NCBI GenBank assembly: GCA_025677605.1
Contig: GCA_025677605.1_4110.1
Length of the DNA stretch: 64,000 bases
Reading direction: 5' to 3' (one strand)
Source: a phage
Numbering within the stretch: position 1 is the stretch's first letter; the number at the start of each line of letters is the position of its first letter. This document shows, piece after piece, positions 29,738 to 58,946 of this stretch. A model generated the notes under the pieces. The model searched no databases, was not told where the DNA came from, and saw only the letters and a program-made list of their open reading frames with translations. Made by a program: the position numbers and the translations under genes.

Positions 29738-30238
29738 TTACGACACAGCGTTTTCGTAATATTCTATTGCTTCCGAGATATTTTGAATTGCCTGTGCCTT
29801 TAATGATTTGTTATAGCGACCAGTAAATGAACCTAAATTCTTAATGAGATCAAGAAATAATGGAAGTACTTCAGATGTATCAGTAAAATCACACTGATAT
29901 AAAGTTCCCATCTGGAACAATTCACCGCCGTCTACGCACAACGTGTTAAAGTCTTTTTGTACTCCCTTTTCTTCATTGAAAATGAAATACGAAGTCCCCA
30001 TGTGGTGAAGATAAACACCATGTTCATCCTGAACGTGGCAGGGGGTAATACACATCGCCGTATTGTCAATATTATTTACTATCGTCAAACGGAGGCTATG
30101 TAATCCGAAAACTACAGTACTATTGAGTGTACTGCATTGTAAATGGTCATTGGTGATAGTAACTTTACTTGTCCTTTTGTCATCGAATGAACGCATAATC
30201 AAAGAAATGCAAAGTTTCATATCAGTTGTTAGTTTCAT
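29738..30238 (-). CDS. FQ-family paralog, hypothetical
   Basis: Motif GGELFQMGTLY. Confidence 0.55.
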   Translation of the reverse strand: MKLTTDMKLCISLIMRSFDDKRTSKVTITNDHLQCSTLNSTVVFGLHSLRLTIVNNIDNTAMCITPCHVQDEHGVYLHHMGTSYFIFNEEKGVQKDFNTLCVDGGELFQMGTLYQCDFTDTSEVLPLFLDLIKNLGSFTGRYNKSLKAQAIQNISEAIEYYENAVS

Positions 30239-30680
30239 CTAAAATACCCTTAATATGTTTGATTAAATTGACTAGTACTGATTTATCAAATGGATTATTT
30301 AGACCAATACACTCGTACTGGAATAAGTCACCATCAAGAATAACATCTAAATCAATATCTAACTTCTTATTGTTGGTATCAAACATAGTAACATTATCAG
30401 AAGAAACTGTCAACACTTTTTGTGAATTTTTAATCTTATTACTGATATAAACATCAATAAGTAATTTACTGTTCACTGTAACCGTTTCAAAGATGATTTG
30501 ACTAGTACCGTAAATGTATTTTACTGAATTATGTATTCGTGAATATTTTAATTTGTATAAATTAATACCATTGTACTTACATTTGGTATCAATTTTTAAT
30601 TTGCATGATAAGATAGCATTAACTAATTCATTTATATTAGTTAATCTTGTTTCGGCTATCGATAAAGTTGGTAAATTCAT
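30222..30680 (-). CDS. FQ-family paralog, hypothetical
   Basis: Motif DGDLFQYECIG. Confidence 0.55.
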   Translation of the reverse strand: MNLPTLSIAETRLTNINELVNAILSCKLKIDTKCKYNGINLYKLKYSRIHNSVKYIYGTSQIIFETVTVNSKLLIDVYISNKIKNSQKVLTVSSDNVTMFDTNNKKLDIDLDVILDGDLFQYECIGLNNPFDKSVLVNLIKHIKGILDETNN

Positions 30681-31101
30681 TATGTAATACCTTTAGGCAT
30701 TGTAATGTTTCTGACATGATATTTGAATCGAACTCAATACTATCAAATTTGATAAATGTACTTTGTGTGAAGAAGGTAGATTCCACATCGGTTGAATAAA
30801 ATGATTCATCAAAGAGATTAGTACTGAACATACCAGTTTTCTTTTTAAAGAACATCATGAATTTTGAATTATAACGAATGACGGCTTCATCTTTATTGAT
30901 GATGATACGAGAAATCTGTGTTCTCGTTTGTGTGAGAATATTGATTTGGAAAACATTTTTCTTAACTTCAACAATATCAACCATATAACCATCCCCACTA
31001 TAAAAGTTACTTCTAACTTGGATTGGCTTTGATGTGATATTGATAATTGCGTCTTGAATAAAAAAGTTTACCGTATCAATGTTTCCTAAAATGTCTAACA
31101 T
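30637..31101 (-). CDS. FQ-family paralog (weak), hypothetical
   Basis: Degenerate motif ESTFFTQSTFI. Confidence 0.45.
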   Translation of the reverse strand: MLDILGNIDTVNFFIQDAIINITSKPIQVRSNFYSGDGYMVDIVEVKKNVFQINILTQTRTQISRIIINKDEAVIRYNSKFMMFFKKKTGMFSTNLFDESFYSTDVESTFFTQSTFIKFDSIEFDSNIMSETLQCLKVLHNEFTNFIDSRNKIN

Positions 31102-31619
31102 AAATTCTCCTTAATAGCTGTCATATTTACGAGAAATTCTTCAAGTACTTCCTCTGTAATACGCTCTGTATACCAGAATATCACAATATCTTTTGAAAGA
31201 CGAACATTCATAAAAATATCTACTAACTCTCTGTAGTACTCTAGAGTTTCTATATCTTTTAGAATTAGTGAGTACTGAAACATAGATTCTTCAGTTAACT
31301 TAAATTCTGGATATAGTAATTCGTTAAATTCAATTGATTCAATCTGTACTTTTATTCCTTTGAAGTTATTGGTTATACAACCTGAATAATTATTTCGGTA
31401 CAACGCGGCATAATCCATGAATTTTGCTTTGTGATTAAAATCAAGAACAGTTTCACCTTTATATGACAATCGGTGGAACGCCGAGAACCTTGTAATTTCC
31501 CACGGTTGCTTAATATCTAGTTCTGTAATATCAATTTGATTGTGCATAAGATCTGTGAAAATCTCACCAATCTTCAATAGTAACTTAGTACGTACCAGTA
31601 CTGTCATTGAATCAGTCAT
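31095..31619 (-). CDS. FQ-family paralog, hypothetical
   Basis: Motif EESMFQYSLIL. Confidence 0.55.
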   Translation of the reverse strand: MTDSMTVLVRTKLLLKIGEIFTDLMHNQIDITELDIKQPWEITRFSAFHRLSYKGETVLDFNHKAKFMDYAALYRNNYSGCITNNFKGIKVQIESIEFNELLYPEFKLTEESMFQYSLILKDIETLEYYRELVDIFMNVRLSKDIVIFWYTERITEEVLEEFLVNMTAIKENLC

Positions 31620-32038
31620 TATACACCTTCATATTCATCAAGAAAATCTTCGATAATCATTTCAGCTTCATCCATATGCATAGCATCAACTTCAACAATA
31701 CGAACTTTAGATGTATCCCAAATCATATAACTAGGAACATTGTCCGGCTCGTATTCATTTTTGTACTGAACTGCATCGTAACCTTCAGTATCACAATACT
31801 CAATAAGTGATCGCCATTCGTCATCACTACCCATATCCTCACACAGAAGCACGTTATCAACGTCAACTTCTAAGGTATGCAAGTACACCGTGTCAGCATC
31901 AACAACGTTCAGTGGGCTTCTCAGCTTGCGTAACGCAGCCTCAAGAGCACTATGCTTCCCTCCCATATGTAAACCACCATAAGGAATGTAGAAGTTGTCA
32001 ATTTTAACAGTACTTGCATGGTATAGAATCATCATCAA
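31619..32038 (-). CDS. hypothetical protein (139 aa)
   Basis: Minus-strand ORF inside array; family motif not evident. Confidence 0.5.
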   Translation of the reverse strand: MMMILYHASTVKIDNFYIPYGGLHMGGKHSALEAALRKLRSPLNVVDADTVYLHTLEVDVDNVLLCEDMGSDDEWRSLIEYCDTEGYDAVQYKNEYEPDNVPSYMIWDTSKVRIVEVDAMHMDEAEMIIEDFLDEYEGV

Positions 32039-32634
32039 TCCTCAGTGAGAATACAGTTCAGGTACGAACACAGTTCATCGTAGAAGAGTTTGTCCAGTAC
32101 TGTAAGGTAACAGATACCGTTCTCTTTCATTGCAGCCTGTATCTTATCATAACCATTCACTGTGTCAAGGATTTCTTGATAAGATAATGCATCATCATTA
32201 ACAGTACTACTCTGGAATGCCATTTCTTCTATGTTATCGATGGGTTCCTCATCGGAATTTAAGAAGCCTCCATTTTGATATATAATGTAATCTTCATTCC
32301 ATGATTTAGTGAAACGGAGCAGGATAGGTTCATTAGCGAACATTTCGATATCACCACTTTCAATGTCGTATGAACAATATAGATTACAGTCTTCATCTAT
32401 GAATTCTGCCATAAAGATTGCAGTTCGAGAACCATCATATACATAAACTCCAGTTTTGTTCATCTCAACATCAACTGCCATTCCATTTTTGAATTGCATT
32501 CGAATCGTGATTTTAAGACTTTGGAGTATGTTATTTTCTGTATCTTTAACACTATACAATCCACGATATCGTAACCACAAATCTTTGATAGTACTTAAAG
32601 AATTGATTAAGTCTTCATTGGGATCTTTTTTCAT
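32035..32634 (-). CDS. FQ-family paralog, hypothetical
   Basis: Motif IEEMAFQSSTV. Confidence 0.55.
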   Translation of the reverse strand: MKKDPNEDLINSLSTIKDLWLRYRGLYSVKDTENNILQSLKITIRMQFKNGMAVDVEMNKTGVYVYDGSRTAIFMAEFIDEDCNLYCSYDIESGDIEMFANEPILLRFTKSWNEDYIIYQNGGFLNSDEEPIDNIEEMAFQSSTVNDDALSYQEILDTVNGYDKIQAAMKENGICYLTVLDKLFYDELCSYLNCILTED

Positions 32635-33248
32635 TCAGGTATTACCATATTGTTAATTAGTGTTTCTTTCTTGATGCAATCAGGCTTGATATAAATGAAC
32701 ATCTTTCGTAGACTCTTCACTTTGTACCAATCATTCAGTACTGAAACCATAAGCCATAATTCTTCTGGTGTAGTGGTAACCTCTGTGATTACACCCATCT
32801 GAAACAATGCACCCTTACAATCTTCAAGTGATTTCAGATCAGTCTTATACCCAGATTCAATATCCATTAGTGTTTTAGTTTTGGCATCATATGTGATGAA
32901 CGATTCTTTTAGCGTTTTTCTTCCATCATTTAAGGTTAAAAACACTGGATTACCTGGACTAAACATGCACTCTTCAAATTCAGGAAATAAATCATGTGCT
33001 TCTTCATCATCGTCTTGGGTTAATTCCAGTACTAATTCATCTGTATAGATATTACAAATCCCAACGCTATATCTATTATACAGCGTTGTATATTGTGTGG
33101 GTTTTCCCTTTTTTGATAGCTTGAGTTCACTTTTCGGACCGTACTTGTCAAATAGTGTTTGTTTAGCTCTAATTAAATCTGGTGCAATGTTTAGTAAATC
33201 ACGTAGTGCTTTCTCGTACTTAACATACTCTGTTCTAATGTTAGTCAT
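32631..33248 (-). CDS. FQ-family paralog, hypothetical
   Basis: Motif KGALFQMGVIT. Confidence 0.5.
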   Translation of the reverse strand: MTNIRTEYVKYEKALRDLLNIAPDLIRAKQTLFDKYGPKSELKLSKKGKPTQYTTLYNRYSVGICNIYTDELVLELTQDDDEEAHDLFPEFEECMFSPGNPVFLTLNDGRKTLKESFITYDAKTKTLMDIESGYKTDLKSLEDCKGALFQMGVITEVTTTPEELWLMVSVLNDWYKVKSLRKMFIYIKPDCIKKETLINNMVIPE

Positions 33249-33780
33249 TGTAACCCTCTAAAAAATAATCTAATGTATCAAGTACATCACTATCAAAAAA
33301 ACAATTATTAACTACAACGATACCAGTATTATGTTCTAAATCATAACATTTATCCAGTACATTGATGCATTCATTGTACTCAATGATATCATGAAGAGTA
33401 CTGTGCTGAAAGTGTTCTTCTTCAGTGTACTCACAGTAATTAATATCAACACTGAACGATTGGTCGTTTCTTTTGCACGGATATAATTTAGTAGACTTTC
33501 GTCCAGACCATGTAATTGAATAACAACCAATCGAATTCTGTGGGATTTGTGTACCAGCATGAAGCATAATGTACAGAGCTTGCGAACTGTATGATTCAAC
33601 GTACAAACGGTTCTTATCTGCATTCATAACACAACCATCAATTGACATGCTTAGTGAATGTGACATTCTACTGGCTTTCCTGATGCCACGGCAGAAATTA
33701 ACATAACGCTGACGTAAGCTGTTAACTTTCTCAGGCCATAGCTCAAATTCTTTAGTATTTGATAATGTTGCAATGTGCAT
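33241..33780 (-). CDS. FQ-family paralog, hypothetical
   Basis: Motif EEEHFQHSTLH. Confidence 0.55.
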   Translation of the reverse strand: MHIATLSNTKEFELWPEKVNSLRQRYVNFCRGIRKASRMSHSLSMSIDGCVMNADKNRLYVESYSSQALYIMLHAGTQIPQNSIGCYSITWSGRKSTKLYPCKRNDQSFSVDINYCEYTEEEHFQHSTLHDIIEYNECINVLDKCYDLEHNTGIVVVNNCFFDSDVLDTLDYFLEGYND

Positions 33781-33782: not shown

Positions 33783-34385
33783 TTATTCCTTAATAACTGG
33801 TATAGCAGACCAAATTCGTTTCATTAGTTCATCTTCTAATACCACATCAGTACTGATCTTTTTGTAGTTCATTGATAATAGAAAATTACATTTCAGTTCT
33901 GATTTTAATTTTTCATAAAGATCAATGTTCATATACATTTCTTCATACGAAGGTAAAGAATGAATTAATGAATTTTGAAAATACCATTCTTCGCTGAAAT
34001 CTTTCACTTCAACACTTTTGATATTCTTAAATGAATCCTTATCAAAATAATATGAAACATCAGAACCATTATAATGTGAAAATGTTTTGAATAATTTTAT
34101 TTCATTTGTTCTACGAAGAATTCTTTCATAGGACAGAATTTTACTATCTTCTAATTCACCATGAAGTATCAGTGAAATATCAAAATCATTTGCAAGTCCA
34201 GCACCAAGGCGTTTGAATGCTAGTGTAATTCGTTGTTCACATGCCGAGATTTCAATCCTGTAAAAATCAGTTGCATACGTTAACATAGAGTATGGGAGAT
34301 GCAACTTTTCATTATTAGAAATACTTTTAGCTAACGTAATGACAGGGTTAAGCATTTTATTAAGAATAGGCATGTCAATGATCAT
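33783..34385 (-). CDS. FQ-family paralog, hypothetical
   Basis: Motif SEEWYFQNSLIH. Confidence 0.55.
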   Translation of the reverse strand: MIIDMPILNKMLNPVITLAKSISNNEKLHLPYSMLTYATDFYRIEISACEQRITLAFKRLGAGLANDFDISLILHGELEDSKILSYERILRRTNEIKLFKTFSHYNGSDVSYYFDKDSFKNIKSVEVKDFSEEWYFQNSLIHSLPSYEEMYMNIDLYEKLKSELKCNFLLSMNYKKISTDVVLEDELMKRIWSAIPVIKE

Positions 34386-34386: not shown

Positions 34387-34890
34387 TCATAATTCTCTTA
34401 GTTTTTTCAATACATAGTGTAGTACTTCATCTTCATTTACATACGATGTGTACATGAGAAATTTGCAACAAGTACTGTTAAGATAGCACATGTAGGTGAA
34501 CATTGCACTATAATTATTCACAGTACTGTTCTGAAATTCAACTTCATCAATTTCACCCAATGATACAGGTCGCATGTTGCAATCTACACCATCAATTTTT
34601 ACAACAGTAGTTCCTGGATGAAAGACTGCGGATTGTGAACCTATGGTGCTTGTATCGAAACTTGGTGCATCATAGATAGGACTATTGCTATCAAAGAGCA
34701 TGAAAATGTCATGGTCTAAACCTCTTTTCTGCTCAAATACAACTCGGATCATACCATCTTTTTGTATTTTAAGAATAATATCTGGAGCCAGTTCGAATCG
34801 ACCATATTGTTCATTGATATATTTTTCTTCAAGAATTTTATGCAATTCCACAAAGTCTTTAGTACTAAAGTGTTCCATCATATCCCTCAA
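34387..34890 (-). CDS. FQ-family paralog, hypothetical
   Basis: Motif DEVEFQNSTVN. Confidence 0.55.
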   Translation of the reverse strand: MRDMMEHFSTKDFVELHKILEEKYINEQYGRFELAPDIILKIQKDGMIRVVFEQKRGLDHDIFMLFDSNSPIYDAPSFDTSTIGSQSAVFHPGTTVVKIDGVDCNMRPVSLGEIDEVEFQNSTVNNYSAMFTYMCYLNSTCCKFLMYTSYVNEDEVLHYVLKKLREL

Positions 34891-35323
34891 CTAATTTTGT
34901 AATTTCTGCTCTTCGTACATCAATGTCATGAGCAAATGATATGGATGTGAAACCACGTTCCGCTGCAATGGCTCTCAACTGTAGGAGAAGTAATAACGGA
35001 TATATCACTTCATCAGAATACAAAGTACTTAATTGAAATATGGTTGCTTCATCAATCTCAGTACTTAAATCTATACTTTTAATATCAATGATTAACTGTG
35101 TATTGAAATACCATACATTGTCATTGACATAATCTATAGTAGTATTATCCATTACACTATAATCAATGTATCTTTCATTTGACCATAATGTCATCATATC
35201 ATCGCCGTCCGATGGATAGCTTACGTCAAACCATGAACCTGATTTTCGAGCTTTACCATTATCCAGTTCATTGAGGCAGTACTGGATTAACTTTTTCAGT
35301 AATTCGTAATCGTCTTTATTCAT
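34865..35323 (-). CDS. FQ-family paralog, hypothetical
   Basis: Motif DEATIFQLSTLY. Confidence 0.55.
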   Translation of the reverse strand: MNKDDYELLKKLIQYCLNELDNGKARKSGSWFDVSYPSDGDDMMTLWSNERYIDYSVMDNTTIDYVNDNVWYFNTQLIIDIKSIDLSTEIDEATIFQLSTLYSDEVIYPLLLLLQLRAIAAERGFTSISFAHDIDVRRAEITKLVEGYDGTL

Positions 35324-35801
35324 TGCATTTCCAGAATATAGGATGTTTGTTAAGTGTTTGAAATATCATATCAAATGTAAATTTGTAATAAGAATAAACA
35401 CCGAAATTAATTGATATAGAATTTAAATTAGTTTCATGCACCATAGCACTATGTATCAGAACTGCATTTCTATGAAACTCATTATCAAGGCTCAATTCAG
35501 CCATAAAATCATCTAAAGTTCTGTCGCCGTTCTTTTTCTCGTATATGATTTCACCACTTGGTTCAATGAATACTGAACTTTCCCTTGATAGGATCATGAT
35601 TCGTTTCTCAATGACATTTTGAGATTCTTGACAGTTGAGTTCACAAAATGTCCATGAGCCACAGAACACAGCGATAATGTCGTTGTTTTTCACGAAGTTA
35701 AAGGGAATGCCATCAATCATTATCTGTACTTCGTGCACAAATTTATGAGAATACTTCTCAAGAATTTTACAAAATTTAATAACGTCTGCTGGATTTAACA
35801 T
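35316..35801 (-). CDS. hypothetical protein, possibly diverged FQ-family member
   Basis: Minus-strand ORF in array; motif degenerate. Confidence 0.45.
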   Translation of the reverse strand: MLNPADVIKFCKILEKYSHKFVHEVQIMIDGIPFNFVKNNDIIAVFCGSWTFCELNCQESQNVIEKRIMILSRESSVFIEPSGEIIYEKKNGDRTLDDFMAELSLDNEFHRNAVLIHSAMVHETNLNSISINFGVYSYYKFTFDMIFQTLNKHPIFWKCNE

Positions 35802-36355
35802 TGGATTGCCTTAATATGTTCAATCATTGCCTTGGAGTTAGTACTCATGTACTCAAATATATCATCATTCATGAGTTCTGTCAAGTTCAATTCAACCGTA
35901 CATCCATCTGGTAAGTTCTTCTGACAGAACGGAGCCAGTACTGCACCGTACAGTACATACGGATCATCAATAATTAAACTCTTCTGGAAGCAATCACAAT
36001 CCATATCTTCTTCATTATCGAAGTAAGTACTGATATCTATTGCAGTACTATCTTTACACATCAACTCTACATCACCTTTTTTAATTACTACACGCTTTGT
36101 CTTGGTATTGCGTAATCGGGTGTATTCTTTTATGTGTCGTTGTTGTGTATTGATTTCAATGATATCTTTGTGGTTGTACGTTATTGTGAAGTGCATATCA
36201 TTATTCAAATCACCACTCAGAAAAAAATTAAGATCTCTTAGTACAGTGTGATTGACTTTAATGTATTCACCTTCACGAATTAAACTCAGTGCAGCTACAC
36301 AATCTTCAATAAACTTCTCAAGGAACTTCCCTCTATAGTAAAGACTATATTTCAT
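35795..36355 (-). CDS. FQ-family paralog, hypothetical
   Basis: Motif DCDCFQKSLII. Confidence 0.55.
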   Translation of the reverse strand: MKYSLYYRGKFLEKFIEDCVAALSLIREGEYIKVNHTVLRDLNFFLSGDLNNDMHFTITYNHKDIIEINTQQRHIKEYTRLRNTKTKRVVIKKGDVELMCKDSTAIDISTYFDNEEDMDCDCFQKSLIIDDPYVLYGAVLAPFCQKNLPDGCTVELNLTELMNDDIFEYMSTNSKAMIEHIKAIQC

Positions 36356-36930
36356 GAGAACTCCCCAGTATTGTTGATAAGACTGTCCAGACCTTCATGA
36401 ATTCTTTTAAATTCACTACGTTTAAAACGATGAACAATTTGTTGTAATGGACAGTATTTGTCTTTCTTATCCAGTTCATGATTGACGATTGTACTGAAAA
36501 GTAATAAATCCAATTCGTTAGTACTGTACATAGTACTTAACTGGAATAGTTCTTCTTCTATAGTACTACTGTTAAGATTAATCTTTGGAATTTTTTTACC
36601 TGAAATAACAATCCCTGCAAATTCACTTGTCCCTGGAACTTCAGCATTTCCTCCAATAATATAATCGTAGTTAATGTACCCATCGTTATTGGTTAAATCT
36701 TCTTTATTGTACTTAATTATCAGAAAGACACGTAGATCATTCATCGAAACTACTGCATGATCATACATACCTTCCTGGTCTTTAGTAATCGCCAAACGCA
36801 TATATGGGAGATTAAATGTCTTTTTAGTTTTACATAAATCACTATTAAGAATAGCATTCACTTTCAAAACCATCTTAGTGTAATATTGATACTCTTCGGA
36901 CATGTAATTATAAAGATTTGAGAAAGGCAT
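36352..36930 (-). CDS. FQ-family paralog, hypothetical
   Basis: Motif EEELFQLSTMY. Confidence 0.55.
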   Translation of the reverse strand: MPFSNLYNYMSEEYQYYTKMVLKVNAILNSDLCKTKKTFNLPYMRLAITKDQEGMYDHAVVSMNDLRVFLIIKYNKEDLTNNDGYINYDYIIGGNAEVPGTSEFAGIVISGKKIPKINLNSSTIEEELFQLSTMYSTNELDLLLFSTIVNHELDKKDKYCPLQQIVHRFKRSEFKRIHEGLDSLINNTGEFS

Positions 36931-37480
36931 TTAATTCCTCCAATAATTCTTCTTGTGTTTCAGTACTTTCATTGTATAAATTATTGAAAGCGGAACACTC
37001 CCCACTACCAAGTTGCATTGATAGTTGATATACAAAATCAGCTTTAGCTATCATATCATAACCAGGAAGCAACGACAACTGGAAAAGATATGCTTCTCGC
37101 TCTTCTGGATTTTGTAGCTCAGGTGCAATATGAAGATATTCTTCATCATCATAATAATCATCGTACAAATTTCTGACGATTAATTCGTTAGTTTCTTTGA
37201 GTTTATTCACAGTAAGACTACAATCAGAAACTGAACCCAAAAATTTACTCTCTCTGCCTGATGCCACATAAGAAGCATCAACTGACCATATATTTTTGGT
37301 TTTATGTTGAATGCAGTGTTGTATTTGGATATTAGCATAACGATACAAAGTACTGCAATCAAAAACTAATCGGTACATTGGATTGTTGAAGTAATGAAAA
37401 ATATTCTCTGTTCTTTTTTGTTCATCTAACTTATGAGTAAGTTCTTCTAGTACTTTAAAAATATCAATTAGTGTTTTCAT
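36908..37480 (-). CDS. FQ-family paralog, hypothetical
   Basis: Motif EREAYLFQLSLL. Confidence 0.55.
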   Translation of the reverse strand: MKTLIDIFKVLEELTHKLDEQKRTENIFHYFNNPMYRLVFDCSTLYRYANIQIQHCIQHKTKNIWSVDASYVASGRESKFLGSVSDCSLTVNKLKETNELIVRNLYDDYYDDEEYLHIAPELQNPEEREAYLFQLSLLPGYDMIAKADFVYQLSMQLGSGECSAFNNLYNESTETQEELLEELNAFLKSL

Positions 37481-38018
37481 GTTCTTTTCTCGTTTGTGCG
37501 TAGTTTTTCAAGTCCTTGAGTAATACTACTAATTGATCATCAGTGAGTAATGATGCTGTTGCACTATATGACATATAATAATTATTGAGATTGAAATCAA
37601 ATTTATAGTTACGTGCTAAAGCTTCAATCGTAAGTGCATCAGTGATTAATTTATCGTGAGTTACAGAACTCTGGAAATTTTGTTCTTCTAAATTCTCAGT
37701 ACTGAACAACGCAATAGGATCATATGATGGTTCTTTGTAATCCACTGCCTCTTTCATTCGAGGATTACGTGAAATAAAAGCCCAAGAACTGTCATATGAA
37801 AAATCAACAACACAGTCTTCCTCATCACCTTCATGTGGGTAAACGCACAGAATAGTTTTATTTTCTTCTGTGAACATCTGCTGCGTTGCAATACCCTCTC
37901 CTGTGTATTCAATTTCATAATCGAAACCGATTCTTAATTTACGTCCCTGTGAATTACACGTTTCAAGAAGTTTTCCCAGTTCGTTGTAAATTTGTAAGAT
38001 TAATAGGTAATTGTCCAT
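37464..38018 (-). CDS. FQ-family paralog, hypothetical
   Basis: Motif EEQNFQSSVTH; track ORF 37464..38075 trimmed to Met at 38018 (GAGGA RBS) because the 5' extension runs through the MCP terminator hairpin. Confidence 0.55.
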   Translation of the reverse strand: MDNYLLILQIYNELGKLLETCNSQGRKLRIGFDYEIEYTGEGIATQQMFTEENKTILCVYPHEGDEEDCVVDFSYDSSWAFISRNPRMKEAVDYKEPSYDPIALFSTENLEEQNFQSSVTHDKLITDALTIEALARNYKFDFNLNNYYMSYSATASLLTDDQLVVLLKDLKNYAQTRKEHENTN

Positions 38019-38052
38019 ATGATATCCTCGGTTAAATAATATTAAAATAATA

Positions 38053-38087
38053 GCAAAGAAAAAAGCCAGAGTCAATACCCTGGCTTT
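38053..38087 (-). terminator. rho-independent terminator downstream of MCP gene
   Basis: Hairpin AAAGCCAG...CTGGCTTT with U-run on minus strand, directly after MCP stop codon. Confidence 0.6.
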
Positions 38088-40049: not shown

Positions 40050-40119
40050 AAAATACGCTCTCTTTTAAATAGGTTACAATATTCTAACACTCTACATTAC
40101 TAATGTCAACCTATAAACG

Positions 40120-40143
40120 AAAAAAGACCCATCAGGGTCTTTT
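40120..40143 (-). terminator. rho-independent terminator
   Basis: Hairpin AAAGACCC-ATCA-GGGTCTTT followed on minus strand by UUUUUUCG; overlaps stop of 40132..40683. Confidence 0.6.
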
Positions 40144-48706: not shown

Positions 48707-48742
48707 TGTAACACAGTACAGGCTCTTGTCAATAGCATGAAC

Positions 48743-50578: not shown

Positions 50579-50749
50579 TCAACCCCTGTGAAGTGTCTTG
50601 ATATATTCTCTGTACGCCATGTGAATATTAGCTATATACAATTCTATACCGTACTTGTCATTTGTAATACAGTTCTTGTGTTGGATATCATTAACAAAAC
50701 GACGAATAACTGCATTCATTAATGATTCCATTTGTTCTTTTTTAAGCAT
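50579..50749 (-). CDS. small protein (56 aa), not in ORF track
   Basis: ATG at 50747-50749 overlapping upstream stop (TGATG); MLKKEQMESLMNAVIRRFVNDIQHKNCITNDKYGIELYIANIHMAYREYIKTLHRG; fills otherwise empty gap. Confidence 0.35.
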   Translation of the reverse strand: MLKKEQMESLMNAVIRRFVNDIQHKNCITNDKYGIELYIANIHMAYREYIKTLHRG

Positions 50750-51075
50750 CAGTACTCCAGATTAATAGAATAAATGCAAGAACGAACTATTTGGTCCTTG
50801 TTATCTCTGTAGTACTTTTGTAATGCAAGGTACATAAAGAAATCGATTTCTTTATCCCATACTAATGATTCCTGAAATATAAAACTTTCATAGTTCTCCA
50901 TGTATTCACATTCGATGTAATTAGGAAGCTTATCTGTTTTGGATACGTACTCAATATTACATTCATTGAAATCACGAATAATCAATATAGGTGTTTTATT
51001 CAATGTAGTAAAAAAGCACGTATAAGTAAAACCACTTCCCATTGTACTTGAAGAAACATATATTTTAGTATTCAT
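50749..51075 (-). CDS. FQ-family paralog, hypothetical
   Basis: Motif ESFIFQESLVW. Confidence 0.55.
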   Translation of the reverse strand: MNTKIYVSSSTMGSGFTYTCFFTTLNKTPILIIRDFNECNIEYVSKTDKLPNYIECEYMENYESFIFQESLVWDKEIDFFMYLALQKYYRDNKDQIVRSCIYSINLEY

Positions 51076-51430: not shown

Positions 51431-51787
51431 CTATAGATTGAAATAGTACTGAACAGTCTTGTGCTTATCTTGAGTTAATTCTATCATGCACTTCGCAGAG
51501 TATTCTTTCATGATATTCTGAATACCAATAACTTCATCTAGTGTACAAATATATTTCTTATCGAACACTAATGACTCCTGAAATAGAGTCGCCTCATCCA
51601 TTTCTGTATAGTCCAGTAGAGGTTCATTAACACCACCACCCACTCGACCGTAATCAATAAAAGAAAATCCATTTGAGGTGTACTTAATATATTGGTCCAA
51701 CGAATGATTGGTATCACCCTTAACGAGATTACAATAGAACTCAACCTTTTTGTAGAAAAAACTGTGAATAGCAAAATCATTGCTCAT
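51431..51787 (-). CDS. FQ-family paralog, hypothetical
   Basis: Motif EATLFQESLVF. Confidence 0.55.
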   Translation of the reverse strand: MSNDFAIHSFFYKKVEFYCNLVKGDTNHSLDQYIKYTSNGFSFIDYGRVGGGVNEPLLDYTEMDEATLFQESLVFDKKYICTLDEVIGIQNIMKEYSAKCMIELTQDKHKTVQYYFNL

Positions 51788-52000: not shown

Positions 52001-52567
52001 TTACCCCTTTTCCGCGACCTTATCAAACACGTACTGTATGTACTGATTCAATGCAATGAGATCGATATCTCTGTCAAATCTCAACGTTAACTTCTCTGTC
52101 AACTCCCCGAAGGTATCATAATAATGCTTAACAAAATAACGATATCGTATTGAATTATAATCGTGCAATGTACTGTACTGAAACACTACATCAGGACTAT
52201 ATGGCATCAAATCAATAAGCTCACTTACTTTTAATTTCTCATTTTCGCCATTATTTTTAACTGTTATATATTCATTTGAACTGAACCATGCACATGATAC
52301 ATCTGAACAAATTGATGTTGTACTGTAAAATCTATCTGTACTCACAAATAATACACTATGTGATTTGTTGGATTTTCTTTCGTAAATCGATAAATCCGAC
52401 ATAAGCGTAATGATTGGTTCGTGTCGAAATTTATTATGCTGGTACGTTTCCTGAAACGCATTCGGATTTTTGTAAATCCTATCTACAATTAAATACAACC
52501 CCTTGATGTATTCTAAATCATCTTCTATCGCTTTGCATGTACTTTCTATGTCCTGAAGGTCCAGCAT
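52001..52567 (-). CDS. FQ-family paralog, hypothetical
   Basis: Motif PDVVFQYSTLH. Confidence 0.55.
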   Translation of the reverse strand: MLDLQDIESTCKAIEDDLEYIKGLYLIVDRIYKNPNAFQETYQHNKFRHEPIITLMSDLSIYERKSNKSHSVLFVSTDRFYSTTSICSDVSCAWFSSNEYITVKNNGENEKLKVSELIDLMPYSPDVVFQYSTLHDYNSIRYRYFVKHYYDTFGELTEKLTLRFDRDIDLIALNQYIQYVFDKVAEKG

Positions 52568-53103
52568 TACTCCCCCTTAATCTCTTTGAGATCTTTTACT
52601 AACCTATCGTACCACGTTAAAGCTAAAAAGAAATTCGTTTTCACATTAGCACGTAATACATTATATACTTGCTGCACCTGTAAAACATAAGGATCTTGTA
52701 CTAAGGACTCCTGAAAATATTCTTCAGGACTCAGGATGTTAGGATTCAAGGTTGCAATATCAACGTGCTTTGTTAAACCAAAAAAGGTTTCTTCCTCTCT
52801 CTTGCTCATATCCAAATAACGAATCCAATTCACTGGAGCGAACTCTTCAGATGCTGATGTAGCCGATGTAATAGCATTGAACAAAAGACAATACTCTAAC
52901 TGCATCTTCTCACCTACAGCGTGCATTACCGTATCTCTCCTGTAATACACAATAGAGGGATACTTTTCAATATCGCTCTTAGGCTCAAGCCATCCTTCCT
53001 TGTGCTTAGGATAGATGTGGTCAAAATCCCCAGCCTCAAACGCCTGTACGATTTTTACTAAATTGTCAGCGAACTCGTACTCAAAATGTTTGTGCTGGAT
53101 CAT
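52567..53103 (-). CDS. FQ-family paralog, hypothetical
   Basis: Motif PEEYFQESLVQ. Confidence 0.55.
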   Translation of the reverse strand: MIQHKHFEYEFADNLVKIVQAFEAGDFDHIYPKHKEGWLEPKSDIEKYPSIVYYRRDTVMHAVGEKMQLEYCLLFNAITSATSASEEFAPVNWIRYLDMSKREEETFFGLTKHVDIATLNPNILSPEEYFQESLVQDPYVLQVQQVYNVLRANVKTNFFLALTWYDRLVKDLKEIKGE

Positions 53104-53165: not shown

Positions 53166-53804
53166 TTATAACACAATCTCTTTTAACTTCAAAATGAAAT
53201 CTTCATATACTTTTATCTGAAAATGCGGACTCTGTGCACTGAAACTAAACCCAGGTTCAATCAATTTCTTGTACTCATTTGCATATTTGCACAACTTCAG
53301 GATTTCGGTAGGGTCCACCATATCCTTCTGTACTAAGGACATTTGAAAAAGCACTTCCTCTACACCCTCGTACTCTTGACCTGCAATGTAACATATGTCA
53401 TCGTCTAACGATAATGATATGAACGTCTTTGTACTTATTACATTACCATCTTTTGAAACACCATAATCTGCAACTGAATCCACAAAGGAATCCGGCTTAG
53501 ATGAACCTGCTATGTCGCAAATGTACTTGTCAATGTATGTGATGTTATTGTTGTTATCGAATATACCAAATGCTAATGACGTGTCAAATACTTCCCTGAA
53601 ACCAATTCTGTCACTACCGATAACTAAAACTAATTTACCACAGGATGCACTGTATCTGGATGCGGAATCAAATGGAATCTCCAATTTTGAATTCTCAGGG
53701 AAAATAGCATTGAACTTCTTTAGCATTTCAAACATATAAGGAACATGAGGCTCCATGAACTTCATCACCTCATACGGTGAAGCATTTCTGGGAAAATTAT
53801 GCAT
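53166..53804 (-). CDS. FQ-family paralog, hypothetical
   Basis: Motif EEVLFQMSLVQ. Confidence 0.55.
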   Translation of the reverse strand: MHNFPRNASPYEVMKFMEPHVPYMFEMLKKFNAIFPENSKLEIPFDSASRYSASCGKLVLVIGSDRIGFREVFDTSLAFGIFDNNNNITYIDKYICDIAGSSKPDSFVDSVADYGVSKDGNVISTKTFISLSLDDDICYIAGQEYEGVEEVLFQMSLVQKDMVDPTEILKLCKYANEYKKLIEPGFSFSAQSPHFQIKVYEDFILKLKEIVL

Positions 53805-54366
53805 ATGTACTTACCCTTAAATTTTCGAAATCCCATACATCACTGATTGTACCATTGTGCCTGTAATCATAATATTGTACTAATACATTATACAATAACT
53901 TCAACGATACAAATTCATGATTCCACGGGGCTTTATTCTCATGAACACATTTAGAGATATAAGGTATCATATATAAAGCAACCATCTCTAATGGTTCATG
54001 TACACATTGCTTTTGAAAATATTCTTCTTCTTGCATACAATGCTCAGGAATAATTAGATCACCATGTTTACCGAAGACATATGAACCTACTGTGTATTTT
54101 TTCACATCGCAAGCGAACCATATTGTACTATCCGAAACAAATGGAATGATACCATTATTGTTTGCAATGTACATCATATGGTAAGAGCTATTTGACTTGT
54201 TAAATACCTCTATACTTTTAATATTACTACAAATCGCGTATTCAATACAATCAATAATCTTATCTTTAAATACACCAATTTCATTGAATGTCATTGCTTT
54301 CTGTACTTGCGATGTTTGCGATGTTTGCATGGGGTTCTCCTTAAAAATGTTCAGGTATATTAGCAC
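53797..54366 (-). CDS. FQ-family paralog, hypothetical
   Basis: Motif EEEYFQKQCVH. Confidence 0.55.
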   Translation of the reverse strand: MLIYLNIFKENPMQTSQTSQVQKAMTFNEIGVFKDKIIDCIEYAICSNIKSIEVFNKSNSSYHMMYIANNNGIIPFVSDSTIWFACDVKKYTVGSYVFGKHGDLIIPEHCMQEEEYFQKQCVHEPLEMVALYMIPYISKCVHENKAPWNHEFVSLKLLYNVLVQYYDYRHNGTISDVWDFENLRVSTYA

Positions 54367-54410: not shown

Positions 54411-54908
54411 TTACGATACAGGCTCGGTTGGGTAAAAGGACTCATATACATTTTTCATTTGCTGGAAATAAAAATATACATGATTCTTAAGCACACCATT
54501 CTCATAAAGCATCTTGTATATTGCGTAGAAAAAGATATCAATTTCTTCATGTATTGTACTGTACTGGAACCACAACTCCGGTGTCAAGGGTTCTGGACTG
54601 TATTTGATTTCCAACAAAGCATCATCCATTGGCTTATCACGTCCTGGATACATATACCAAAGGTCATCTCTTTCCAGACGAAGATCATCTTCATCAGGAT
54701 ATACATTGTCAGGAGCAAAATTTAAAAAACTAAAAAGCACTTTACCTGAATTTGATTCTTCTAACTGATTGTTAATATAATCATATTTGTGATTTATTGA
54801 AGCATATCCTTTTCCTTCATATGCTTTCATTATATTGTATACACCTTCAATGTACTTAACGTACTGTACAGCACTCTCTAAACTAAATTCCACTTTACAT
54901 TTTTGCAT
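54411..54908 (-). CDS. FQ-family paralog, hypothetical
   Basis: Motif PELWFQYSTIH. Confidence 0.55.
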   Translation of the reverse strand: MQKCKVEFSLESAVQYVKYIEGVYNIMKAYEGKGYASINHKYDYINNQLEESNSGKVLFSFLNFAPDNVYPDEDDLRLERDDLWYMYPGRDKPMDDALLEIKYSPEPLTPELWFQYSTIHEEIDIFFYAIYKMLYENGVLKNHVYFYFQQMKNVYESFYPTEPVS

Positions 54909-55279
54909 AATAAAATAATCTCAACTAAAGCAAGAACTGTATTGAATTCCACTATACTTGTAATTCCCTGAAGGTACATGTACTTTGCTATTACATATTT
55001 CTGTACTAAATTATCATTCTTCTTGAATTCATCAAACGCATCATTACAACGTGTCATGTATTCTGTACTCAAAAATATCTTATGCATCTCTAATGCACTC
55101 TGATAATATGCATACAACTCACGAATATCTATACTACGTAAATCACGTTGTTCGTACTTGTGATACGGAATAGCTTCAATTTCAATATTATAAAACCATT
55201 CTGTTAACTTATTAATATCAAATGTATTATTGTACTTCGAGGTCATAATATTTCCTTTCCCATTCGGATACATGGGCAT
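54878..55279 (-). CDS. hypothetical protein (133 aa)
   Basis: Minus-strand ORF; family motif not evident. Confidence 0.45.
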   Translation of the reverse strand: MPMYPNGKGNIMTSKYNNTFDINKLTEWFYNIEIEAIPYHKYEQRDLRSIDIRELYAYYQSALEMHKIFLSTEYMTRCNDAFDEFKKNDNLVQKYVIAKYMYLQGITSIVEFNTVLALVEIILLCKNVKWNLV

Positions 55280-55535
55280 TAAAATTCATAACAGCTTTCT
55301 GTATCTTTTTTAATAATAACACATCATATCCACCTGTGTCAATCACTAATTGCTGTTGAAACAATTCTTCGTCGGATAATGTATTGAAATCTACAAAATA
55401 ATCTGTGACTTCGTTATCATTTAAATGTGCCATGTACCAACCTGAACTACATGAATAAATCAAATTCCAACCGTCTTCATCGCCTTCTAATTCAACATAA
55501 ATCATATCTTTTGTATAAAGCATTCTATACTTCAT
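55227..55535 (-). CDS. FQ-family paralog, hypothetical
   Basis: Motif DEELFQQQLVI. Confidence 0.5.
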   Translation of the reverse strand: MKYRMLYTKDMIYVELEGDEDGWNLIYSCSSGWYMAHLNDNEVTDYFVDFNTLSDEELFQQQLVIDTGGYDVLLLKKIQKAVMNFNAHVSEWERKYYDLEVQ

Positions 55536-56040
55536 AACTATATCCTTGCATCAAAATATCATAAACTGCTTGAATGTCAGGAACTTTTATATAAAATTTA
55601 AAACCCTTAATTAAAGGATTCGCGTACAATGAACTGAATAACTTTAGATAATGCATTTGACGAGGACTATATAATAACGATTTCTGAAATAATTCAGCAC
55701 TACAATCTGTACTAATATCAATTAAATCAATTCGTTCTTCTACTTCATCATCTTGTTTCAAATCATAAAAGAAATAATCGTTTGTGTTTACCCACAAATA
55801 CCCTTCTTTATTTTCGTATACAACAGGAGATGTTTGTACCGGATTGGCTTGGGTAAATGCTGCAATACAAACGTTAACATTCCCTGCATTATTTGCATTG
55901 TGAAACATAAACGATAATTTACCATGCCTATCTTCTATGCGTAATTCATCTATATCAATGTACTTATGTATAGGATGATTATTTTTGAGCATAAGCATTA
56001 TTGTACTAATCTTGTGCGTTAATAATTCAATTTCATTCAT
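55525..56040 (-). CDS. FQ-family paralog, hypothetical
   Basis: Motif SAELFQKSLLY. Confidence 0.55.
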   Translation of the reverse strand: MNEIELLTHKISTIMLMLKNNHPIHKYIDIDELRIEDRHGKLSFMFHNANNAGNVNVCIAAFTQANPVQTSPVVYENKEGYLWVNTNDYFFYDLKQDDEVEERIDLIDISTDCSAELFQKSLLYSPRQMHYLKLFSSLYANPLIKGFKFYIKVPDIQAVYDILMQGYSYEV

Positions 56041-56046
56041 ATATTA

Positions 56047-57230: not shown

Positions 57231-57433
57231 TTAGACTCCTTTGGTGTGCATACTATCTCTGTTCGTAAAGCCCTTATGTATGCATCAACGAATTGTGGCT
57301 GTGCTCTCGTTCCTAGATAAAATAATAAATCGAACTCTGCCATTTTAACATTAAAAGGATCTGAATCTACATTTCGAATAAACTGTCTGTACTTCAATTC
57401 ATATCCGTTAGGCATCTTCTTGTATACTATCAT
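57215..57433 (-). CDS. GTNYQ-family small protein (diverged), hypothetical
   Basis: Motif FYLGTRAQPQ. Confidence 0.45.
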   Translation of the reverse strand: MIVYKKMPNGYELKYRQFIRNVDSDPFNVKMAEFDLLFYLGTRAQPQFVDAYIRALRTEIVCTPKESKCTKM

Positions 57434-57743
57434 ATTCTATACAATCACCTCTTTTAATCGAATCCCAAACTTCTTTCATCCTCTTCTGTAAACTGCACAT
57501 AATATCTATATCAAACATATAAGGGTCATGAATTAGACTGTACTGAAATAATTCATCTTCCTGCATAAGAGAAAGATCCTGAAGCAACTCGTACTTACCT
57601 AAACTCCTGGGACTCAAATAAGCAAAATATTCTTTACCGTCCTCAAAAACATAATGTACTTCATGATTCATGTACTTCTTGTAATTCTCATGCGTATAAG
57701 CAAATATACAACCGGAATTAATTCGGTGAATGTTGAATTTCAT
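57408..57743 (-). CDS. FQ-family paralog, hypothetical
   Basis: Motif EDELFQYSLIH. Confidence 0.55.
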   Translation of the reverse strand: MKFNIHRINSGCIFAYTHENYKKYMNHEVHYVFEDGKEYFAYLSPRSLGKYELLQDLSLMQEDELFQYSLIHDPYMFDIDIMCSLQKRMKEVWDSIKRGDCIEYDSIQEDA

Positions 57744-57752: not shown

Positions 57753-58109
57753 TTATACGTAAATTGGATGAATATTTTGAAGGAAATGCTTAGAAATATT
57801 CATACATGATATCATCTGCCTTTGTACTTCCTTCATCTCTTTGTATGTCAACCCAAAAGAATCATCGTATACTAACATGTACTGAAACTCTTCTTCTTCA
57901 GAGATATCAACTAGATTCGGTACTGCTATCGTATTTTCATATGATTTGATACCTTCTACCCAATAGAAACAATTATCAACTTTATTGTACTCAAATATCT
58001 TAACCCCAGGCCCACCCTGTACATTGGTCAACGCAATGAAACATGTATTCGCTCTTTTTATACAATTGATCTTACGCATTATCGCATTATCTCCATCTCT
58101 CTCCGTCAT
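57753..58109 (-). CDS. FQ-family paralog, hypothetical
   Basis: Motif EEEEFQYMLVY. Confidence 0.55.
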   Translation of the reverse strand: MTERDGDNAIMRKINCIKRANTCFIALTNVQGGPGVKIFEYNKVDNCFYWVEGIKSYENTIAVPNLVDISEEEEFQYMLVYDDSFGLTYKEMKEVQRQMISCMNISKHFLQNIHPIYV

Positions 58110-58332
58110 CGCAAGAGTACTGGTACGTTGTCGTTAGGGTAGGAATCATGTTCGTAATCGGCATATTATTCACAATAACCGTTACGGGCATCATAACCGT
58201 CTCTTTTCTACTCTGTCCTGTCTTTGTGCAATTCATCTTGTGCATTTCATCTGAATCCAGATACGCTAATACAAACGGTGCAATCCCAAGAACAATACAC
58301 AAGACGATAAGGAAATTTAAAAATTTTAACAT
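58087..58332 (-). CDS. small membrane protein (81 aa)
   Basis: N-terminal TM helix FLNFLIVLCIVLGIAPFVLAYL. Confidence 0.45.
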   Translation of the reverse strand: MLKFLNFLIVLCIVLGIAPFVLAYLDSDEMHKMNCTKTGQSRKETVMMPVTVIVNNMPITNMIPTLTTTYQYSCDDGERWR

Positions 58333-58370
58333 AATCTGTACCCTATGATTAACGTTAGTGTACTATAGCA

Positions 58371-58601
58371 CTACAATAGAGTACTGTCAACTGCTTTGTT
58401 CTCTATTATACTCATTAAACCCCAAATTAGATAACGAACACTATCAGCTTGATAGTTAGTACCTACTGTGCATTTTAAAATTAACTCATCTTTCAGTACT
58501 GCACGTTCTTCTTGGGATATAGGAAGAGAATTTATTTGTTTTATTTGTGGTTGTAAAGTATTAATAAGCTTGCAGTACTCTTCGAATGATAATCTTTTCA
58601 T
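58371..58601 (-). CDS. GTNYQ-family small protein, hypothetical
   Basis: Motif KCTVGTNYQAD. Confidence 0.5.
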   Translation of the reverse strand: MKRLSFEEYCKLINTLQPQIKQINSLPISQEERAVLKDELILKCTVGTNYQADSVRYLIWGLMSIIENKAVDSTLL

Positions 58602-58604
58602 GGT

Positions 58605-58946
58605 TCAGTACTCAATAATGTGTTCTTCATAAGCACTATTAGGCTCCTGTTTAGTTTCTTTTATTAGTACTATCATCTTATGTGCCAATGGCATAGGAAA
58701 CTCTAAATCCCATACTAATGATTCTTGAAAGTATTCTTCTTCAGATAAAGTACTTAAATCTTCAATGTCAATGTGTTCGTACATGTTATATTTGTAATCA
58801 GCAAAAGATATATAAAAACCTCTTGTAGAATCGTAAGTAATCGTGAATGGCTTACCTTTGTAGTCCATTACATCTTTACATAGACTGCATTTGATATATG
58901 TACTTGCAAATGATTTATAAACCTTAAGTTGAATATTAGTTTTCAT
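58605..58946 (-). CDS. FQ-family paralog, hypothetical
   Basis: Motif EEEYFQESLVW. Confidence 0.55.
   Translation of the reverse strand: MKTNIQLKVYKSFASTYIKCSLCKDVMDYKGKPFTITYDSTRGFYISFADYKYNMYEHIDIEDLSTLSEEEYFQESLVWDLEFPMPLAHKMIVLIKETKQEPNSAYEEHIIEY

Follow-up and report, generated by a model that had tools for sequence, protein, structure and literature searches.

The window examined here, 64,000 nucleotides of phage DNA (contig GCA_025677605.1_4110.1 of GenBank assembly GCA_025677605.1), carries on its minus strand, between positions 29738 and 58946, a tandem array of small genes that belong to one strongly diverged protein family with the shared core motif E-E-x-x-F-Q-x-S. On present evidence neither this family nor its fold has been described. 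The window, along its length, shares 98.7-98.9% identity with Escherichia phage A4 (ON286972, 355,528 bp, genus Asteriusvirus), with 121Q, PBECO4, phAPEC6 and ~30 further E. coli and Salmonella jumbo phages as more distant kin; nearly all of its genes lie on the minus strand and its GC content is ~33%. The array, ~29 kb long, takes up ~8% of the 355 kb of an E. coli jumbo phage genome and supplies 7% of the genes. We tentatively read it as an early, cytoplasmic repertoire of binding proteins, built on a common scaffold and directed at host takeover or counter-defence, a reading that may well be right although we stop short of calling it probable, and in which the doubt attaches mostly to function and less to description.

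The shared block and the predicted fold

An earlier note, written from the letters of the sequence, had proposed a single diverged family with this motif, while allowing that its members might prove statistically unrelated. Between 31 and 59 kb, 26 minus-strand open reading frames (ORFs) contain the strict motif [DE][DE]xxFQxS, against a chance expectation of ~0.05 estimated from amino-acid frequencies. A profile hidden Markov model (HMM) seeded with these 26 ORFs and iterated inside the window until convergence recovered 42 minus-strand members at 30222-58946, of 102-212 amino acids (aa), with E values from 3e-11 to 1e-29, and the proposal of one real family therefore stands. Mean column identity in the 42-member alignment is just 11%, yet the Phe and Gln of the motif are invariant, as they are in a 111-sequence alignment that includes distant relatives, and the motif is present in all 166 homologues retrieved. 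The core block lies about two-thirds along the protein and has the consensus [ST]-E-E-x-x-F-Q-x-S-[TL]-[VIL]-[YH]; in the 111-sequence alignment its Ser is kept in 101 sequences and its two Glu positions in 90 and 98, respectively. Because BLASTP at E < 1e-3 detects only 34 of the 861 paralogue pairs among the 42 members, we regard the family as real but very old. Synonymous codons vary freely at the invariant positions (Phe TTT/TTC 31/11, Gln CAG/CAA 28/14, Ser by six different codons), which places the constraint on the protein and rules out conservation of the motif at the DNA level. We note that CAG serves as the codon of the invariant Gln in 28 of the 42 members, yet is the minority codon elsewhere in the member genes (66 CAG versus 102 CAA).

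Three or four weakly matched ORFs bring the total to 42-46 copies, somewhat below the ~48 that had been proposed. Membership is also less pervasive than the earlier description of almost every minus-strand gene: members account for 42 of the 62 minus-strand ORFs that are not nested (68%) and for 70% of the sequence in 29738-58946, and 20 unrelated ORFs are interspersed among them. When these 20 were considered as hidden members, the idea was plausible for 29738-30238 only and weaker for 32631-33248. An outlying copy that the earlier note had placed at 16835-17524 is retained as a weak match to the pooled profile, and its neighbour at 17521-18099, which that note did not list, joins it as a probable member (Table 1). 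Packing is head to tail as had been described, with overlaps at 41 of 61 junctions and gaps of 0-15 nt at 11; the listed 5' ends are longest-ORF starts, a few of which are probably 10-20 codons overlong compared with the A4 annotation.

An AlphaFold model of the 167-aa member at 44112-44615, built on the 111 aligned sequences (predicted local distance difference test (pLDDT) score 90.4, predicted template modelling (pTM) score 0.87), has an alpha/beta fold that is apparently new and without a solved counterpart. In this model an N-terminal helix (residues 9-28) is followed by six strands (37-104), the E-E-x-x-F-Q-x-S block occupies a short helix (114-121) ahead of a second helix (126-141), and a strand that carries F-Y-x-D (148-151) leads into a final helix (152-162). 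The helix of the core block is confidently predicted (pLDDT 96-98), the conserved block spanning residues 113-125 of 167. All three segments that had been singled out from the letters, an N-terminal helix, the core and a C-terminal F-Y-x-D-L, are present in the 111-sequence alignment, where they read [YF]..[FY]A[K]xIxxI, [ST]EEx[Y]FQxS[TL][VIL][YH][D] and F-Y-[LFI]-D-L, respectively. Conserved positions comprise hydrophobic helix residues, Tyr/Phe in the strands and a polar set (T/S113, E114, E115, Q119 and S121); the alignment contains no conserved cysteine column, its indels concentrate between strands, and its helices and motif are fully occupied. Member N-termini vary in length, and eight short members (102-118 aa) lack the N-terminal part while retaining the motif. 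Most members are acidic, with a median isoelectric point (pI) of 4.9 and a mean net charge of -10. A search of viral predicted structures with the model matched solely uncharacterised proteins of the same phage clade (SP27, 121Q and RaK2, and more weakly Yersinia fHe-Yen9-03/04, Cronobacter GAP32 and Serratia BF).

The polarity of the block bears on an account in which the family would be a set of adaptors. The invariant block would be an exposed dock for a single common partner, which could be a phage machine such as ClpP, or a host protease or other hub, and the variable strand loops would bring in different substrates, for example for targeted degradation; more than 40 strand-loop surfaces, kept since before the E. 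coli and Klebsiella phage genera parted, would each supply that partner with another host or defence protein. A scaffold with variable loops would be suitable, ClpP is encoded in the same early region (2418-3113; Pfam CLP_protease, E 7.7e-42, as the earlier note had recognised), and the block, rich in polar residues (E114, E115, Q119, S121) and invariant in every relative found, is more invariant and more polar than hydrophobic packing alone would predict. Set against this, the block lies in a well-packed internal helix beside conserved hydrophobic residues, its [ST]-E-E start reads like an ordinary helix N-cap, no partner is known, and the family is tied to ClpP by nothing beyond lying 27 kb away in the same 64-kb window, so that the connection with ClpP drawn in the earlier note is not supported. 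We consider the adaptor account unlikely, though deserving of some weight; F-box, BTB and ankyrin expansions in large eukaryotic viruses provide an adaptor-like comparison, and a motif that did dock a common partner would represent a new adaptor logic in phages, the counterpart of those substrate-adaptor expansions.

The same polar cluster could instead be an active site (Glu-Glu, Gln, Ser, Tyr/His and Asp) of enzymes whose paralogues modify different substrates, an assignment with which the purifying selection on each copy (see below) would also agree. No similarity to any enzyme fold or family was found, however, more than 40 paralogous enzymes of 100-210 aa at 10-20% pairwise identity would be unusual, and the short forms (102-118 aa) dispense with the N-terminal helix while keeping the motif; an enzyme family is, in our view, very unlikely.

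Age, selection and probable replacement of copies

An exhaustive HMMER search of 1.84 billion representative proteins returned 151 clusters (50% identity, E <= 1e-3), all of them 65-213 aa, single-domain and motif-bearing, from Asteriusvirus genomes, phage-sized contigs in E. coli assemblies and metagenomic proteins. The comparison of copy number and synteny across related phages that the earlier note had suggested gave, by profile scan at the same genome position, 44 copies in A4, 41 in 121Q and at least 32 in Klebsiella phage RaK2 (genus Alcyoneusvirus), and in A4, 121Q, phAPEC6 and RaK2 the array is flanked by the same Dam methylase and cytidylyltransferase genes. In the window these Dam-type DNA N6-adenine methyltransferase and putative cytidylyltransferase genes, whose function names come from GenBank annotations alone, lie at 23254-24311 (minus strand), ~5.4 kb past the low-coordinate end of the array, and their identical position relative to the array in all four phages makes the pair a synteny anchor. 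The shared position in A4, 121Q and RaK2 implies that the array is ancient. Nineteen of the 42 window members are nearer to a RaK2 protein than to any window paralogue, in roughly collinear order, which indicates that most duplications predate the split of the two genera. Nearest paralogues show a weak tendency to be neighbours (mean rank distance 12 versus 14.3 at random), and the sole fairly recent duplicate cluster includes 49195-49650 and 50095-50577 (53% identity).

Purifying selection acts on every copy. In the comparison of the window with A4, the ratio of non-synonymous to synonymous change (pN/pS) in the members is 0.22 (112.5 synonymous and 104.5 non-synonymous differences), and by protein region it is 0.19-0.29 in two close pairs (window/A4 and 121Q/phAPEC6), slightly higher in the strand region; over this short range no positive selection was seen in either pair, overall or in the variable strand region. 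These values speak against the notion that the array consists of neutral leftovers, decaying and functionless products of tandem duplication that inflate the genome. Growth of jumbo phage genomes by tandem duplication has been proposed (cited in PMC7247149), but all copies have intact frames, single copies can be traced between genera and conservation operates at the protein level; with the pN/pS values, these findings leave this explanation largely refuted and scarcely credible.

Constraint on each copy coexists with divergence between relatives, the array being by far the most variable part of its region. Relative to 121Q it is collinear, yet same-position copies are mostly 23-40% identical, with a minority at 77-91% and some unmatched, whereas identity is typically 60-90% for the flanking genes (roughly 70%) and for the small-ORF family next to the array. 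Other Asteriusvirus genomes cover 47-56% of the 25-kb flank at the DNA level and at most 9% of the array, and the modelled member at 44112-44615, 98.8% identical in A4, reaches no more than 31% in any of the 32 remaining records. From old and young alleles in fixed slots we infer whole-allele replacement from a diverse pool. Despite ~99% identity, two A4 members, A4_355 and A4_345, are missing from the window (at ~50093 and 54309-54377, respectively); since both have 121Q orthologues (87% and 77%), they were lost in the window lineage, and one loss junction falls within a 5' coding repeat shared by neighbouring genes (ATGAGTTTAG). Variation in the array thus looks like whole-allele replacement together with gain and loss of whole genes. 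The arms race invoked in the earlier note agrees with the hypervariability of the array between relatives, and fails as a fast race by point mutation, given a pN/pS of ~0.2 and duplications that are mostly ancient.

Similar array size in two genera under purifying selection would also be expected if the proteins had a part in the phage's own life cycle and served its components as chaperones, regulators or assembly factors. This role sits poorly with same-position copies that diverge far more than neighbouring genes, with the loss of whole copies between 99%-identical phages without obvious harm, and with an array that does not adjoin structural genes and carries early-type promoters; we judge it quite unlikely. 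Copies that are ancient and individually constrained, yet apparently swapped wholesale between close kin, point to many distinct, host-dependent functions.

Promoters, virion proteome and the favoured explanation

With a threshold of at least 11 of 12 matches to the sigma-70 consensus, the array contains 20 promoter-like sequences on the coding strand, compared with 2 on the opposite strand and 2.3 in shuffled sequence, and half of them have an extended TG. The best matches fall in the few gaps between genes, with 30-35 nt separating them from the gene starts downstream, and the same strand bias (coding versus other) recurs in 121Q (14 versus 2), RaK2 (8 versus 1) and phAPEC6 (6 versus 1). For phage CBB, RpoD-like promoters were described in a region of short hypothetical ORFs, which the authors inferred to be early host-takeover genes (PMC5259590). 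The array is therefore probably transcribed by host RNA polymerase from strong sigma-70-type promoters, and, as these putative promoters are of the host kind, probably early in infection. In phAPEC6, a different phage of the same genus, the array corresponds to gp404c-gp460c, and the virion proteome of that phage (62 proteins, PMC7247149) includes no array gene and nothing between gp347 and gp549. A host-type promoter region and absence from the phAPEC6 virion agree with the earlier proposal that these are neither replication nor structural genes.

These data also bear on the proposal that the proteins are packaged or processed, as virion internal proteins or injected effectors in which the block would be a protease or packaging signal. 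The block loosely resembles an E-x-x-Y-x-Q/[SG] protease site, and hypervariable internal-protein arrays with a short conserved signal do exist in T4-type phages. As a protease site the block nevertheless fits poorly: the residue after the Gln is variable (most commonly Tyr in 33, Leu in 17 and Gln in 13 of 111 sequences), the Ser stands one position too far, and the segment is helical (pLDDT 96-98). Being internal and helical, the block is neither N-terminal nor disordered, none of gp404c-gp460c is among the phAPEC6 virion proteins, and the promoters are of early host type, not late. A packaging or processing role is most improbable, and the processing or packaging signal that had been linked to ClpP is not supported.

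We return to the explanation that we favour, which takes the array to be a multigene family of ancient origin that is confined to one clade of jumbo phages, that of RaK2/121Q. Every copy would be a small, mostly acidic, single-domain cytoplasmic protein on a common scaffold (N-terminal helix, strand aromatics, [ST]EExxFQxS[TL] helix, C-terminal F-Y-x-D-L strand and helix), with most of the variation in length and sequence carried by the loops between the six strands and with the invariant block serving mainly to hold the fold together. Host RNA polymerase would transcribe the genes, probably early, the proteins would not be packaged, and each would bind a different host, defence-system or rival-phage target, to inhibit or redirect it. 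The repertoire would be reshuffled between phages by whole-allele replacement and by whole-gene loss and gain, the latter via recombination between similar 5' ends of neighbouring genes, and would be kept because every copy is under purifying selection. Within this scheme we infer the early timing, the binding function, the assignment of one target per copy and the structural role of the motif.

Several points weigh against this explanation. Neither by sequence nor by fold does any member resemble a protein known to act in anti-defence or host takeover. The number of copies is fairly stable (41-44 in Asteriusvirus) and positive selection is lacking over short range, features that fit a long-kept toolkit better than a live arms race. 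The motif has more polar residues than a purely structural core would usually call for, so the invariant Gln with the near-invariant Glu-Glu and Ser may be a shared functional site. The early timing is read from promoter matches, and the virion evidence comes from a different Asteriusvirus phage in a type of experiment that low-abundance proteins can escape.

Should the proteins prove to be binders that serve host takeover or counter-defence, their more than 150 natural variants of a single scaffold would constitute a ready-made library and a route to new host targets and defence inhibitors. Several phages of the genera that carry the array are under development for therapy, and the array might then help to explain host-range differences between near-identical therapeutic phages.

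Features of the window and comparison with known systems

Table 1. Members of the family, candidate members and putative transcription signals in the 64,000-nt window
Feature	Sequence	Position	Strand	Evidence or remark
Member, 152 aa	..GDLFQYECIG..	30222..30680	-	HMM E 6.8e-14; motif
Member, 174 aa	TEESMFQYSLIL	31095..31619	-	HMM E 1.4e-15; 79% to same-position 121Q copy
Member, 199 aa	IEEMAFQSSTVN	32035..32634	-	HMM E 4.3e-13
Member, 179 aa	TEEEHFQHSTLH	33241..33780	-	HMM E 5.9e-14
Member, 200 aa	SEEWYFQNSLIH	33783..34385	-	HMM E 4e-17
Member, 167 aa, longest ORF	IDEVEFQNSTVN	34387..34890	-	HMM E 1.7e-15
Member, 152 aa	DEATIFQLSTLY	34865..35323	-	HMM E 2.4e-19
Member, 186 aa	MDCDCFQKSLII	35795..36355	-	HMM E 1.2e-17
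Member, 192 aa	IEEELFQLSTMY	36352..36930	-	HMM E 1.4e-21
Member, 190 aa	REAYLFQLSLLP	36908..37480	-	HMM E 1.5e-13
Member, 203 aa, longest ORF	LEEQNFQSSVTH	37464..38075	-	HMM E 3.7e-19
Member, 183 aa	DDGVLFQYSTLY	40132..40683	-	HMM E 1.4e-14
Member, 210 aa	SEESFFQNSLIY	40680..41312	-	HMM E 4.6e-18; best RaK2 relative 33% over 191 aa
Member, 204 aa	LDETLFQYSLIH	41317..41931	-	HMM E 1.6e-16
Member, 168 aa, basic (pI 9.3)	TDENYFQNSLIY	41906..42412	-	HMM E 1.1e-19
Member, 156 aa	NEEMYFQNSLLY	42422..42892	-	HMM E 4.1e-19
Member, 160 aa	TEETHFQLSLIY	42889..43371	-	HMM E 8.2e-22
Member, 143 aa	PPDELFQYSLVC	43359..43790	-	HMM E 3.8e-13
Member, short form, 112 aa	SEEELFQMSTAF	43790..44128	-	HMM E 2.6e-13
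Member, 167 aa, modelled protein	SEEDYFQFSTTM	44112..44615	-	HMM E 8.5e-23
Member, 165 aa	DECEYFQYCTIY	44615..45112	-	HMM E 2e-25
Member, 178 aa	TEELFFQMSTVD	45169..45705	-	HMM E 1.6e-24
Member, short form, 112 aa	SEEELFQESLVW	45708..46046	-	HMM E 4.1e-15
Member, 137 aa, longest ORF	SEEEFFQESTVW	46046..46459	-	HMM E 1.1e-16; 91% to a 121Q copy
Member, 182 aa	NEESVFQLSTVH	46958..47506	-	HMM E 5.8e-22
Member, 189 aa, longest ORF	FEEQMFQLSCTD	48137..48706	-	HMM E 1.2e-15
Member, 148 aa	NEEGYFQLSTVL	48743..49189	-	HMM E 2.4e-16
Member, 151 aa	SEEYYFQQSTVY	49195..49650	-	HMM E 4.5e-25; 53% to 50095-50577
Member, 147 aa	TEEYYFQQSLIF	49650..50093	-	HMM E 5.3e-24; adjacent A4 copy A4_355 missing in window
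Member, 160 aa	SEEYYFQQSTVY	50095..50577	-	HMM E 1.1e-29; phrog_9317 E 6.7e-61, unknown function
Member, short form, 108 aa	YESFIFQESLVW	50749..51075	-	HMM E 3.3e-11
Member, short form, 118 aa	DEATLFQESLVF	51431..51787	-	HMM E 6.5e-13
Member, 188 aa	SPDVVFQYSTLH	52001..52567	-	HMM E 9.9e-19
Member, 178 aa	SPEEYFQESLVQ	52567..53103	-	HMM E 1.2e-20; A4 orthologue A4_348 annotated 'DNA ligase'
Member, 212 aa	VEEVLFQMSLVQ	53166..53804	-	HMM E 4.3e-19
Member, 189 aa, longest ORF	QEEEYFQKQCVH	53797..54366	-	HMM E 1.3e-25; neighbour A4_345 missing in window
Member, 165 aa	TPELWFQYSTIH	54411..54908	-	HMM E 8.5e-16
Member, short form, 102 aa	SDEELFQQQLVI	55227..55535	-	HMM E 9.1e-14
Member, 171 aa	CSAELFQKSLLY	55525..56040	-	HMM E 5.2e-25
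Member, short form, 111 aa	QEDELFQYSLIH	57408..57743	-	HMM E 1.2e-14
Member, short form, 118 aa	SEEEEFQYMLVY	57753..58109	-	HMM E 2.4e-13
Member, short form, 113 aa	SEEEYFQESLVW	58605..58946	-	HMM E 1.4e-13; 80% to a 121Q copy
Probable outlying member, 229 aa	TEEEHFQLMMMR	16835..17524	-	Pooled-profile E 8.8e-7; hhalign probability 44%, 33 columns
Probable outlying member, 192 aa	LPEHFQMSTLFD	17521..18099	-	HMM E 5e-4; pooled-profile E 2.6e-5
Probable diverged member, 166 aa	GGELFQMGTLYQ	29738..30238	-	HMM E 0.0035; hhalign 47%, motif region only
Possible diverged member, 205 aa	GALFQMGVITE	32631..33248	-	HMM E 0.018; hhalign 2.5%; in family slot
Putative sigma-70-type promoter, 12/12, TG-extended		45144..45172	-	Intergenic gap, 32 nt upstream of 44615-45112
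Putative sigma-70-type promoter, 11/12, TG-extended		40081..40109	-	82-nt gap, 32 nt upstream of 39501-40049
Putative sigma-70-type promoter, 11/12, TG-extended		48705..48732	-	Gap upstream of 48137-48706
Putative sigma-70-type promoter, 11/12, TG-extended		58362..58390	-	30 nt upstream of 58087-58332
Putative sigma-70-type promoter, 11/12, TG-extended		55313..55342	-	34 nt upstream of 54878-55279
Putative sigma-70-type promoter, 11/12, TG-extended		35856..35884	-	55 nt upstream of 35316-35801
Terminator-like hairpin, 11 bp stem + T run		38062..38087	-	Just downstream of methyl-accepting chemotaxis protein (MCP)-domain gene
Terminator-like hairpin, 9 bp stem + T run		40122..40143	-	3' end of member 40132-40683

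Several other genes in and around the array deserve mention. A 470-aa protein encoded in mid-array (38092-39504, minus strand) contains a methyl-accepting chemotaxis signalling domain (Pfam MCPsignal, E 6.3e-37), is ~35% identical to Salmonella and E. coli chemoreceptors, and among phage records is shared by A4 only, being absent in 121Q. Together with its upstream neighbour at 39501-40049 it is bracketed by terminator-like hairpins on both sides and preceded by a strong promoter, an arrangement that suggests a host-derived insertion. Adjoining the array at 58371-63315 (minus strand) is a second tandem family of 20 head-to-tail copies (~65-96 aa) with a conserved [LF][LV]GT[ND]YQ block, which also occurs in 121Q at 47-92% identity; as a relative of the family described here it was rejected (hhalign probability 0.3%). 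Exactly at the array edge, A4 (L001, 7421-8079) has ~657 bp of extra DNA relative to window positions 29061-29078. This DNA, with a small ORF and a gene for a putative HNH endonuclease (A4_397), has the look of a mobile homing-endonuclease insertion. The early region further encodes a polynucleotide kinase-phosphatase and a T4-type RNA ligase 1 (13422-14354 and 15428-16573, minus strand), the classic tRNA-repair pair against anticodon nucleases, and, besides ClpP, an ATP-dependent DNA ligase (4773-6191) and two calcineurin-like phosphoesterases (3962-4825 and 8327-9070). The 'DNA ligase' label of A4_348, the orthologue of 52567-53103, is probably an annotation error, as this protein has no Pfam ligase domain and the real ligase is the one at 4773-6191.

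The earlier note had not recognised the family, and the databases agree. Pfam contains no family for eight members searched first, nor for all 42 scanned at E <= 1, where the weak matches (ArdA, DUF4467, BsuPI and others) concern one member each, lie below cut-offs and were dismissed as chance; the ArdA anti-restriction match (PF07275), for example, was to one of the 42 members at 14.1 bits (E 0.074) against a gathering score of 27 bits. NCBIfam recognised no family, its single-member matches being likewise rejected as chance, PADLOC gave no consistent defence match (six different single-member matches, best E 1.6e-4, none common to two members), and searches of PDB sequences with two profiles found nothing. 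In PHROGs the members are scattered over at least 34 unknown-function groups with E values down to 1e-101 (phrog_12674, phrog_9317, phrog_13866, phrog_15629, phrog_34017 and about 29 more); these groups are the same proteins as those of the array, which PHROGs splits into at least 34 families with no superfamily, name, motif or fold. A beta-clamp-binding motif, which is of the Q-L-[SD]-L-F type with hydrophobic Leu or Met at the second and fourth positions of a flexible peptide, is a poor match for the core block: Tyr, Leu or Gln usually fills the second position there, 60 of 111 sequences have Thr at the fourth, and the segment is structured.

One parallel that we considered is the SUKH / SMI1-KNR4 group of immunity proteins, which form tandem arrays of small alpha+beta single-domain binders of diverse toxins. 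The likeness lies in the small alpha+beta single-domain proteins and their tandem arrangement; no SUKH-type Pfam model matched any of the 42 members at E <= 1, and no fold shared with solved SUKH structures was found. T4-type phages have hyperplastic early and accessory regions as well as internal-protein loci, whose products are packaged via an N-terminal signal. Their early regions resemble the array as clusters of small early genes of unknown function that vary sharply between close kin and are linked to host adaptation, but they are mixtures of unrelated genes, whereas the array is dominated by one family with an internal conserved block and is not represented in the phAPEC6 virion proteome; T4-type internal proteins carry a short, conserved targeting sequence at the N-terminus that ends at a protease site, and this has no counterpart in the internal, helical block. 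Eukaryotic DNA viruses offer a further analogy in multigene families such as African swine fever virus MGF360/505 and the poxvirus ankyrin/F-box proteins, which have roles in host range and immune evasion. Diverged tandem paralogues, a conserved core and copy-number changes between strains are common to these families and the array, as analogy only: there is no homology, and the viruses infect another domain of hosts.

Related remarks in the literature are limited to the statement that ~10% of RaK2 proteins are paralogues (PMC3622015) and to the existence of arrays of related genes; in the searchable literature on Asteriusvirus, RaK2, phAPEC6, CBB, Sharanji and fEgEco12 and in jumbo-phage reviews we found no definition of the family, its motif, fold, size or cross-genus conservation. 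Large paralogue expansions in big viruses are already known, and it is the protein family itself that is new. A precedent in scale is Bacillus phage G, in which a lineage-specific expansion of ~35 zinc-ribbon proteins was called "unprecedented" and its function guessed (Iyer et al. 2021, PMC7824862). Both are very large one-family expansions of small proteins in a jumbo phage, but the zinc ribbons have another fold, the array proteins having neither conserved cysteines nor Cys-His pairs, and the array exceeds the phage G expansion in copies (42-46), is strictly tandem, and is common to whole genera that infect E. coli, Salmonella and Klebsiella rather than to one phage.

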